Shown: in pieces, positions 60,001 to 64,000 of the stretch | Layout: every line of letters begins with the position of its first letter | How positions within the stretch are numbered: position 1 is the first letter of the stretch | Source of the DNA: Nitrospirota bacterium | Lineage (GTDB): Bacteria; Nitrospirota; Thermodesulfovibrionia; Thermodesulfovibrionales; Dissulfurispiraceae | Reading direction: 5' to 3' | DNA: 64,000 bases | Assembly (NCBI GenBank): GCA_963790025.1 | Contig: CAWBMP010000003.1 | Location: forward strand, 212,799-276,798 | Made by a program: the position numbers

Positions 60001-63000
60001 CATCAATCCTGAGTTCATGTTTCTTTTTGGATGAAGCGCTTTTTTCATCATGGGATTGCGACTTTGCCGGGGAAGAAGGGGGAACCTGCAGACCTTTCAC
60101 AACCTCGCTGCTATCGTGGAGCAATGGCAGAACAGAAGGAGTTTGAGGAGTTTGAGAAACAAGAGGAGGCCCCGCCTGAGGGACCTGTGCAGTCTGCACA
60201 TTCCGTGCAGGAGAAGGCGGCGGGACACTTTTCATTACAGGCATAATAAAGTATATGCCCGCGGCAATGGCAACTATGGGAAGGACCCACAATATTTTGA
60301 GAGGGAACGCTTTTTGATTGGTAGAAAATTTTAGTCCAGATGAGAGCAATATATCAACGTCAACCTGGTCGCCCCCACCTTTAAAGGTATCGAGGTCTTC
60401 AATTACCTCTTTAGACAAAACAGCCACCTCTTTTCCGTAAGGAATGCCTTTTTCTTTAGCGCCTTTTTTGTCCCGTAGATATTTCTCATACGGCTCAACT
60501 GCGATATCAAATGGGATGCCGAGAAATTCCGCATACTCTCTTATGTATCCCCTTGTATACACCTCAACGGGAAGCTTATCGAACTCGTCCTCTTCTATGG
60601 ACCTTAGATACATACTCTTAATACGGGTCACTTCAGCAATCTCGCGGAGTTCTTTGCCGAGTTCGTTTCTTCGTTCTTTTAAGAAATTAGACATATTTGT
60701 AAGATAGCATATTTTTTCAATAAATATAAAGATATAAACAAGTTAGGCCATAGGCCACAGGCTATAGGCGATAGGTTATAGGAAAGAAAACTATAACCTA
60801 CGGCCCACGACCTATAACCTATTGCCTATTTTTTTTTCATATATTCTGTACTTCTTGTACAACAACCCGCCTAACATTTCGATGATTCTTTTCACGGGTA
60901 CGTTATCCTCAAGAATCCAGGAAAACTCTAAATTCGTGTATCCGCCCCTCACCTTAATGTAATTAACTCCGTTAGTAAAGAGCAGTGCATCAAGCCCCTG
61001 GCTCCTGTATCCCGGCTTTACTCCGTAAAGAAGGACCCTGAGCGCGGTGATTTTTCTTGAGTAATACAGCGCTTTCAGGAGAGTAACAGGCGTCAGCCTG
61101 CCATGCATGTGCTTTAACACTGAATTAAAGTCGGGGAGGAGTCCTAAAAAACCGACAGCTCTCCTGCTTTTCCGCTATCATAATGAATTCAGGTATAATT
61201 AAAGGCTTCAGTCTGCCAGCGCTATATGAGAGTTCTTCATCAGAGATAGGAATAAATCCCCAGTTGTCTTTCCATGCCGAGTTATAAATATGTTGAAATG
61301 TCTGCATGTCAGCCATAAAATTTTTCATGTCTATCGGCCTTACCGTAATCCCTTTTCTTTCCGCCAGCGAGGCGACCCTTAGTACCTTTTCAGGAAGGTC
61401 GCCGCTAAAAATATAATTATAGGCGTAGAGGTCTTTGGCTTTTGACATGCCCCAGCCTTCCAGCAACTCATTATAATAAGGCGGGTTATAGGGCATCATA
61501 AGCACTGGCGCACTATCAAATCCTTCAATTAGAAATCCGCACTCATCATTGGTCGAGAAATTCATGGGTCCCCTTAGCGTATCCATGCCCCTTTCCCTTA
61601 ATTCATCGTAAACAATTTTCAGGAGCGAATCCGCTACACGTGGATCATGAATGCTCTCAAAGAAGCCGAAAAATCCTGTGCGCTCCTTATGATAGTTATT
61701 ATGTTCGGGGTTGATAATGGAAACGATGCGTCCGGCAGGCACTCCGTTTTTGAAGGCCAGAAAAAATTTGACTTCCGCCTTTCTTAAAAAAGGATTCCGT
61801 ACGGAGTAGTGGGTTTTCATGTCCCGCACCAACTGGGGTACATAAAAGGGTCCTTCGCATAAAGCGAAAGAGGGAACTTTATGAAGGCATTGAGGTCACG
61901 TCTCGTCCTTGCCTCTCTGACCTCAACTGCGGGCCCGGGGACACTCATTATATCAGTCCGATTGCTTTCCCGACCTTCTTAAACGCTTCAAGCACCCGTG
62001 CAAGCTGCTCCGCCGTGTGCGTGGCCATATAGCTTGTCCTGATGAGTGCCTTACCCGCAGGCACAGCAGGAGAGACAGCGACATTGGCAAACACGCCTTC
62101 CTCCTGAAGCATAATCGCCATGCGGAAGGCGGTTTCGTCCTCTTTGACTATAATAGGTATTATTGGCGTCTCACTGGGTCCTACTTCGAATCCGAGAGCT
62201 TGAAAGCCCTGCATCATTGCGCGGGTGTTTTTCCAGAGCATCTCTCTGCGCTCGGGTTCGTTCTCGATAATGTCGAGAGCCGCACTGACTGCCGCAACAG
62301 AGGCCGGCGGAGGACTTGCACTGAAAATCAGGGCCCTGCCGAAGTGCTTGATATAATGTATAACATCGTCATCCCCGGCAATAAACCCTCCGATAGAGGC
62401 AAGTGACTTGCTGTATGTGCCCATAACCAGGTCCACCTTATTTTCCATGCCGAAGTGTTCCGCGGTCCCCCGTCCTGTCTTGCCGAGAACGCCGATTCCG
62501 TGTGCATCATCTACCATTATGCGGGCACTGTAATTATCTGATATTTTCACTACCTCCGGAAGGTTGGTAATGTCCCCTTCCATACTGAACACTCCATCAA
62601 CAACCAAAAGCTTCCCCCGTCCGTTATTTTCGGAGAATACCCTTTCCAGGTCAGCCATATCGTTATGCTTGAAACGCCTGACCTCGCCGTAAGATAATTT
62701 GCAGCCGTCTACGATGCTGGCATGGTCCATTTTATCGATGATTACGACATCATCCTTACCGACCAGTGCCGATATGACACCCAGATTCACCTGAAAACCG
62801 GTCGAGAACACGAGCGCCGCGTCCCGCTTCATAAAGCGGGCAAGCTTCTCTTCAAGCTTTACATGGATATCCAGAGTACCGTTCAGAAAACGGGAACCAG
62901 CGCATCCCGTACCGTACTTTTTTATCGCCTCTATCGCGGCCTCTTTTACTTTCGGTGATTTGTGAGCCCCAGGTAATTATTCGAACCCACCATGATCATC

Positions 63001-64000
63001 TTCCTGCCGTTTATGATCACTTCGGGGTCCTGGGCGCTTTCTATGACTCTGAAAAATCGATAAAGTCCCATCTTCTGCAGTGTCCTGGCGGTTGTAAACT
63101 TATAACATTTTTCAAATATATCGGTCGTTTCGGTCATAGCCACCGGTGGATCCTGTACCAATCAGCTGTCCACCTTGCTCCTTCCTTGATTTTTACCATA
63201 GGCACAAATTTCAGCCTATCTGCTGCCTTTGATGCATCGCATATCCAGTCTGAATGTTTCAGTTCCCTGATCTTATCAGCATTAATAATAGACGATTCCC
63301 CGGACCGTTCCGAGATCACTCCTGCGAAGTACATAAGGCATCGCGGATTCTGGTTTATTGGCCGCTTCTGAATTGCATCGCCTATTGCATCGATGACATC
63401 ATCAGAGGAGTAAATAACACCATCAGACATAAAAAAAATCTCTCCCTCCGCATTTTTTTCCAACGCAGACAGTATTATACCATTTATCAAGTCCTCAATA
63501 TATATAAAAGAATAACGGCATTTGCCCCAAACAGGCGCTATCCCCGATTTCAGCATCTTGAAAAATACAAGCATGTCCCTGTCCCTGGGCCCATATACGG
63601 CAGGAGGCCTGATAATCACCACAGGTATATCGCAGCTGCTCCCCAACACTAATTTCTCTCCTTCCAGCTTGGACCGCCCGTAGAGCGAAACCGGGGCCGT
63701 TGCACAATCTTCTTTCAGCGGGGCACCCCCTGTGCTTGGCCCCGCGGCAGCGAGACTGCTAATATAAACAAAGCGTTTAATACCTTTATTTTTTTCGAGT
63801 ACGGCCGTCAGTATATTTTCGGTGCCTTTTACATTTGCATTGATAAAATCCGCTTCAGAACATGCCTTAGTCAAGCCCGCAAGATGGAAGACATAATCGA
63901 CACCTTCCACAGCCTCGTACAAGGATTCCTTTTCGATACAGTCGCCCTGGACCAGCCGGACATTAAGGTCTTCCAGATAGTTCAGCTTCGAAGTGTTCCT

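Follow-up and report, generated by a model that had tools for sequence, protein, structure and literature searches.

Genes of a predicted ceramide-synthesis operon, cerR-spt-cerS, are core to the Thermodesulfovibrionales

Three adjacent genes at the end of the window, i.e., the whole stretch of 64,000 nucleotides analysed here, most probably encode the core bacterial ceramide pathway (we put the probability at about 0.8), and members of the order Thermodesulfovibrionales, among which the same genes are widespread, are predicted to produce the corresponding lipids. The analysis builds on homology, active-site motifs, fold, gene order, joint presence or loss, and purifying selection. The window covers the terminal 64 kb of contig C3, so that its end coincides with that of the contig. 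Read on the minus strand, the locus consists of a gene for a short-chain dehydrogenase/reductase (SDR), an α-oxoamine synthase gene, a GNAT-like gene, a hairpin, a rodZ-like gene and rnr (Table 1).

Table 1. Features at the contig end of the window
Feature	Position	Strand	Remarks
cerR-like gene, predicted extended SDR (NAD(P)-dependent reductase)	63134..64000	-	5' end open at contig end
spt, putative serine palmitoyltransferase, Bacteroidota/deltaproteobacterial subgroup	61948..63137	-	one frameshift near 62956
cerS (bCerS/YghO family), putative tandem-GNAT N-acyltransferase	60812..61948	-	frameshifts near 61846 and 61159-61174
Imperfect hairpin, 7-base repeats, between cerS and rodZ	60736..60836	.	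inverted repeat
rodZ-like gene and rnr, downstream neighbours, intact	57503..60694	-	Pfam HTH_25/RodZ_C and RNB

The stop codon of cerR overlaps the start of spt (ATGA at 63137-63134), and the stop of spt overlaps the start of cerS (TAATG at 61950-61946), where the protein begins with MSVPG. Such overlaps of each stop with the next start point to a single operon that is probably translationally coupled. The two genes downstream, rodZ-like and rnr, are outside the ceramide pathway; they are full length compared to their relatives and, among the loci examined, were found 3' of cerS only in the genus and in one other member of the family. The intervening hairpin, about 100 bases long with arms of 46 bases, has a folding energy of -50.5 kcal/mol (z -8.1) and may mark the end of the transcript. 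It received no call in the terminator scan, and the promoter and terminator scan gave results at chance level. Elsewhere in the genome, only three short partial matches to the 7-base-repeat hairpin were detected, which ruled out an abundant genome repeat, and no Rfam matches were obtained in five Thermodesulfovibrio loci. Further inside the window, at 53502-54340, there is another broken gene, lying in two frames, which we take to be integrase-like, as recognised by eye from its translation.

Intact orthologues from a genome of the same genus (L021), 73 to 87% identical to the window pieces, were used as proxies for the proteins encoded here. For both spt pieces of the window, SerpalmtaseCFB was the best NCBIfam model. 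In a PDB search with L021 Spt, the best matches were 8GUH/3A2B (440 bits, E 6e-131), serine palmitoyltransferase (SPT) of the Sphingobacterium type, followed by an α-oxoamine synthase (BioF/Kbl enzyme) at 330 bits. Against the cysteate acyltransferase 28EH the score was 261 bits, and a cysteate-specific enzyme of the sulfonolipid/capnine pathway was thus rejected as the closest match. L021 Spt scored 564 bits with NF047600, which is below the cut-off of 640 but 130 bits over the next model, and 346 bits with the alphaproteobacterial SPT model. The same was seen more widely, with three other Nitrospirota Spt proteins scoring 567, 585, and 574 bits, all below 640 with NF047600 as the best model each time, and three Bacteroidales proteins (626 to 636) likewise staying below it. 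The motifs GSNNYLG, AGSRFLNG, and GTYSKS, representing PLP and substrate positions, were invariant in 17 of 17 rows from the order. As the survey had claimed, BioF is encoded separately, by a gene on contig C4 that passes the TIGR00858 cut-off. By PDB search, NCBIfam, and tree, characterised SPT was a closer relative of Spt than were BioF, Kbl, HemA, and cysteate acyltransferase, and together these results supported its assignment as a putative serine palmitoyltransferase of the Bacteroidota type.

It could be hypothesized that the operon makes a related aminolipid, either a 1-deoxyceramide, with alanine as the substrate, or a sulfonolipid, with cysteate. Sphingobacterium SPT is broadly tolerant of amino acids, which counts for such a product, as do the Spt scores under the curated NF047600 cut-off and the dominance of 1-deoxy- and sulfono-ceramides in some anoxic waters, described in a passage of PMC11334938. 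However, the solved SPT outscored the cysteate acyltransferase by 440 to 261 bits, and the aligned motif residues match those of the serine-using enzyme. We consider such a product quite improbable, and retain ceramide as the predicted one.

The second enzyme of the predicted pathway, CerS, was assigned by similarity and fold. L021 CerS was 34% identical to YghO of Escherichia coli BL21(DE3) over 374 columns (E 2e-72), and YghO is described in PMC9386255 as the orthologue of the Caulobacter acyltransferase. With E. coli YghO rather than Caulobacter bCerS as the reference, the protein falls within the filter for bCerS given in a passage of PMC11334938 (E ≤ 1e-30, coverage ≥ 50%). Pfam recognised GNAT only, NCBIfam had zero models matching CerS or YghO, Atlas returned only generic acyltransferase names, and no solved bCerS structure was found by sequence search. 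An alignment of 18 sequences from several phyla contained 31 invariant columns. The fold predicted from a 39-sequence alignment, which was used in place of the single-sequence fold (pLDDT 37), had a pLDDT of 93 and matched tandem GNAT structures with a TM of about 0.6. These results supported cerS as a probable full-length bCerS/YghO homologue with a predicted tandem GNAT fold.

For CerR, which lacks its first 31 codons owing to the contig end, identity to the same-genus orthologues was 71 to 81% from residue 32 on. Pfam identified Epimerase (E 1e-26) and 3Beta_HSD, and the YxxxK motif was present as YGRSK. L021 CerR was 32% identical to the epi/CerR orthologue of E. coli BL21 (E 6e-40), but unrelated SDR paralogues of this genome reached 23 to 31%. 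With these values so close, the assignment of CerR rests mostly on gene context, and Balneolaceae, Nitrospinaceae, and deltaproteobacterial loci likewise have an SDR of the same cluster in the vicinity of spt and cerS. An alternative is that this SDR is an unrelated epimerase, or that, as in eukaryotes, its reduction step precedes acylation, with the long-chain base as the substrate. The low identity to the reference would fit with this, as would the score of the best NCBIfam model, HpnA, which was far below the cut-off. Furthermore, the protein begins directly with the Rossmann motif, while the Caulobacter enzyme is reported as periplasmic in PMC11087976, and the order of the steps is disputed in print. 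On the other hand, the stop-start overlap with spt is kept even where cerS has moved away, and the gene is lost jointly with spt and cerS. We therefore regard another role of the SDR as unlikely, and treat the gene as a putative cerR.

In the proposed pathway, the PLP-dependent Spt would form 3-ketodihydrosphingosine by condensing a long acyl thioester and L-serine, the tandem GNAT CerS would attach the N-acyl chain, and CerR would reduce the 3-keto group, giving dihydroceramide for membranes that also contain lipid A. This chemistry and order of steps are modelled on Caulobacter, E. coli BL21, and Sphingobacterium. In the Caulobacter scheme described in PMC11087976, Spt makes 3-ketodihydrosphingosine, bCerS acylates, and CerR reduces, the order of the last two steps being disputed. 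Queries with E. coli AcpR and AasR had zero matches at Nitrospirota loci, and the rhodobacterial five-gene type, which carries these two proteins, was rejected for these loci on the same grounds. With a dedicated acyl carrier protein (ACP) and acyl-ACP synthetase missing beside the operon, the acyl donor would probably be acyl-CoA or housekeeping acyl-ACP. We searched the flanks of the operon for a conserved head-group gene but obtained none; frequent neighbors were NfeD, HtpX-like M48 peptidase, and FabF-like genes. The genome has dsrA and lpxC above the family cut-offs, indicating that dissimilatory sulfur metabolism and lipid A are kept, and for lpxC there were two such matches (G000:C4:483398 and C4:1636969).

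In the assembly analysed here, translation of the window places spt in two frames and cerS in three. Compared to nine loci of the same genus, spt is 1 base short near 62956, and cerS is 1 base short near 61846 and 2 short at 61174-61159, while cerR is 3 bases short at 63353-63343 with its frame kept. The frameshifts in spt and cerS that the survey had reported near the contig end are thus present in this sequence, with three frame-breaking sites. All lesions were deletions of 1 to 3 bases, and the translated stretches contained zero in-frame stops. Orthologues spread over several frames made up 7 of the 202 placed on the genome (2 of 3 in the operon and 5 of the 199 others). On unbroken stretches, dN/dS was 0.056 to 0.074 for spt (0.068 to 0.075 in intact relatives) and 0.085 to 0.151 for cerS (0.114 to 0.126 in intact relatives), and it was slightly raised for cerR, with 0.15 to 0.19 over 212 codons against 0.12 for the whole gene; these values are rough counts at high synonymous distance. 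They showed that the operon genes are under purifying selection.

Upstream of cerR in a close relative, 5 of 8 likely genes (presumably including panC and argG) had no match anywhere in this genome, which indicates that an assembly gap follows the operon. In four public runs, we found a contig, identical over 244 bases, that has one extra base at 61843, in line with the extra base noted by the survey in a related contig at the start break of cerS, and a 90%-alike contig with three extra bases at 63344-63353. The pieces listed from these runs covered neither the break in spt nor the second one in cerS. Taken together, the nature of the deletions, the share of multi-frame orthologues inside and outside the operon, the dN/dS values, the gap, and the two public-run contigs suggested that the breaks are most likely assembly errors beside an assembly gap, in line with the original explanation.

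A recent pseudogene in this genome, with the pathway being real in the order, would also produce three frame-breaking lesions across two adjacent genes, and genuine losses do exist within the order. Moreover, all three genes in the first 4 kb of contig C4 were unbroken, which speaks against a general excess of errors at contig ends, and two of the breaks fall outside the coverage just described. A very recent inactivation would leave dN/dS values unaffected. However, only deletions of 1 to 3 bases were observed, with no in-frame stop in the translated stretches; dN/dS of spt and cerS was unchanged; a gap follows directly; and the lesion at 61846 was absent from the contig identical over 244 bases. 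A pseudogene is therefore very unlikely in our view, and assembly error is preferred.

To count the genes across Thermodesulfovibrionales, we defined high-quality genomes by a completeness of at least 90% and a contamination of no more than 5% (219 in the order). Matches to cerS (E ≤ 0.001) were present in 292 of 317 genomes of the order, in 209 of the high-quality ones, and in 13 of 13 families; one genome, G079, is counted although its match was weak. For spt (E ≤ 1e-120), the numbers were 281 of 317 and 203 of 219, and for cerR (E ≤ 1e-60) 212 of 230 and 204 of 219. The near-universal presence of CerS, put by the survey at 92 of 101 genomes, was therefore reproduced on a larger set. Gene order was more variable. 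A cerS place was listed for 125 of the 150 spt places, and in these, drawn from lists that favor closer relatives, spt and cerS were adjacent in 116 genomes and apart in 9. Of 41 order loci fetched, a non-random draw with family f12 over-sampled and gene order read by tblastn, 32 had all three genes in a row, 8 were split, and 1 ended at a contig end. Family f12 is identified as Thermodesulfovibrio through one CerS protein that exactly matches a T. yellowstonii database entry, and here cerS was far from cerR-spt in 7 of 14 placed genomes among the matches listed.

Eight genomes (G018, G078, G106, G108, G110, G112, G115, and G134) had none of the three genes with these queries, and the five of them that were searched with the SPT model gave only a BioF-level match (270 to 314 bits). 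Family f3, with nine well-assembled genomes, accounts for five of these eight. The joint losses within the order are real. The proposal that the operon is a core trait of the order thus holds for the genes, each of which is core at 93 to 95%, but less so for the single operon, which is split in half of the placed Thermodesulfovibrio genomes, and the genes are missing in some well-assembled genomes.

Some loci had additional features. A tandem pair of cerS genes (67% and 65% identical to the query) lies behind one spt at G045:C73:21174-24271. In a genome of the same genus, a second, distant cerS homologue (39%) follows an HTH-sulfotransferase gene on a 5-kb contig without spt (L040:451-5014), which is possibly a sulfated-lipid module or a binning error. 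In four Thermodesulfovibrio loci where cerS has moved away (L139-L142), the genes downstream of cerR-spt are convergent and carry pilin-type N-terminal methylation motifs; upstream are NfeD, aldehyde ferredoxin oxidoreductase, a PAP2/PMT_2 fusion, GT2, and an LPG_synthase_TM gene, for which a function as envelope-lipid modifiers is possible.

Beyond the order, an even sample of 401 Nitrospirota genomes at least 90% complete contained cerS matches in 190, with large differences between families (f25, 29 of 38; f23, 6 of 7; f16, 2 of 13; f29, 1 of 97). Judging by its size, f29 may be the Nitrospiraceae. The order cerR-spt-cerS was the same in 5 of 5 loci from sister orders and in 7 of the 8 f25 loci fetched, the eighth being a short contig with spt and cerS. 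Since the same gene order recurs in sister orders and in another class, the trait probably predates the order, with losses, and the ceramide operon looks like an older Nitrospirota trait. An Spt tree of 39 proteins, with BioF of this genome and E. coli Kbl as outgroups, joined the 17 rows of the order into one clade (98/98) with the families grouped. The 26 Nitrospirota rows grouped at moderate support (82/93), in a tree whose deep branches are open and where long branches meet. Vertical inheritance of the three genes is the best explanation for this Nitrospirota branch. Three large, near-complete f31 genomes (G409, G462, and G478) carry a cerS of greater divergence, separated by 15 bases to 6 kb from an spt-like gene that is also distant, and this pair was perhaps acquired separately.

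Two layouts outside the Nitrospirota were also recorded. In Nitrospinaceae (L129:330-4585), spt-cerS-cerR is followed by a CDP-alcohol phosphatidyltransferase gene, a candidate head-group enzyme. In Balneolaceae (L096-L126), the conserved layout consists of a divergent cerR, two genes that we take to be glycosyltransferase-like, spt, and cerS, and this layout suggests that glycosylceramides may be made in that family.

The survey's statement that no paper names Nitrospirota does not hold. With reference to Sohlenkamp and Geiger 2016 and Stankeviciute et al. 2022, a passage of PMC10667739 attributes genetic potential for sphingolipids to genera "including Thermodesulfovibrio and Ignavibacter". 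A passage of PMC11789144 places Nitrospirota among the phyla with ceramide clusters, the basis being a single unclassified genome from groundwater in which the layout comprises five genes. These predictions reach the same conclusion as ours for the type genus and the phylum; they consist of one sentence or one genome, and an order-wide count, gene order, and losses are not part of the passages concerned. PMC10667739 also describes a correlation of glycosylceramides with Thermodesulfovibrionia, among many other taxa, in fluids from Oman, which is a hint in support of the pathway. Six text supplements of that paper do not name Thermodesulfovibrio or Thermodesulfovibrionia. PMC11334938 and its preprint list predicted producers in 40 phyla, including sulfate-reducing Desulfobacterota, and Nitrospirota was unnamed in the main-text passages of both, as it was in those of PMC12619533. 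Matches to "Nitrospir" in PMC10411912 were to Nitrospirillum, and the single mention in an Antarctic preprint was unrelated. In this literature, mostly non-subscription papers, neither an order-wide census nor a lipid analysis of an isolate was found.

The pathway is thus already known and the lineage already predicted; the present analysis contributes the census and shows where the operon is split (Thermodesulfovibrio), where its genes are jointly lost, and how far they extend into the phylum. The census adds no enzyme, mechanism, or surprise, but what had been mentioned only briefly in the literature becomes a firm, countable prediction, with each gene in about 93 to 95% of well-assembled Thermodesulfovibrionales. 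Cultured Thermodesulfovibrio makes this prediction testable, and the prediction is relevant to where the ceramides of anoxic and subsurface lipid records come from. A broader proposal, which we offer tentatively and rate as possible rather than probable, is that ceramide synthesis was ancestral in anaerobic Nitrospirota, is core in Thermodesulfovibrionia, and was lost in most nitrite oxidisers, and that these organisms contribute a major part of the (glyco)ceramides that are still unexplained in hot springs, serpentinite fluids, and anoxic groundwater. If true, Thermodesulfovibrio isolates would provide a cultured thermophilic anaerobe for studying new head groups and the role of these lipids in the membrane.

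Compared to known systems, the predicted enzymes are of the same types as Spt, bCerS, and CerR of Caulobacter crescentus as described in PMC11087976 (α-oxoamine synthase, GNAT acyltransferase, and extended SDR), a likeness that rests on descriptions, the sequences compared being the E. coli BL21(DE3) orthologues. Unlike in Caulobacter, Spt here is of the Bacteroidota type (564 bits with NF047600 against 346 with the alphaproteobacterial model), a dedicated ACP or acyl-ACP synthetase is not adjacent, and the three genes form one coupled run. Orthologues of the E. coli BL21(DE3) cluster yghO-aasR-epi-acpR-spt, described in PMC9386255, were 34% (CerS, E 2e-72), 32% (CerR, E 6e-40), and 42% (Spt, E 7e-101) identical to those here, values similar to the Caulobacter Swiss-Prot identities quoted in the survey (bCerS 36%, CerR 28%); that five-gene layout includes AcpR and AasR and a divergent yghO, none of which is seen at this locus. 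The closest solved enzyme is the Sphingobacterium-type SPT (3A2B and 8GUH; E 6e-131), with the PLP motifs conserved and the NF047600 score below the curated cut-off. Finally, spt and cerS are divergent in Bacteroidales loci, whereas at the present locus they are co-directional.
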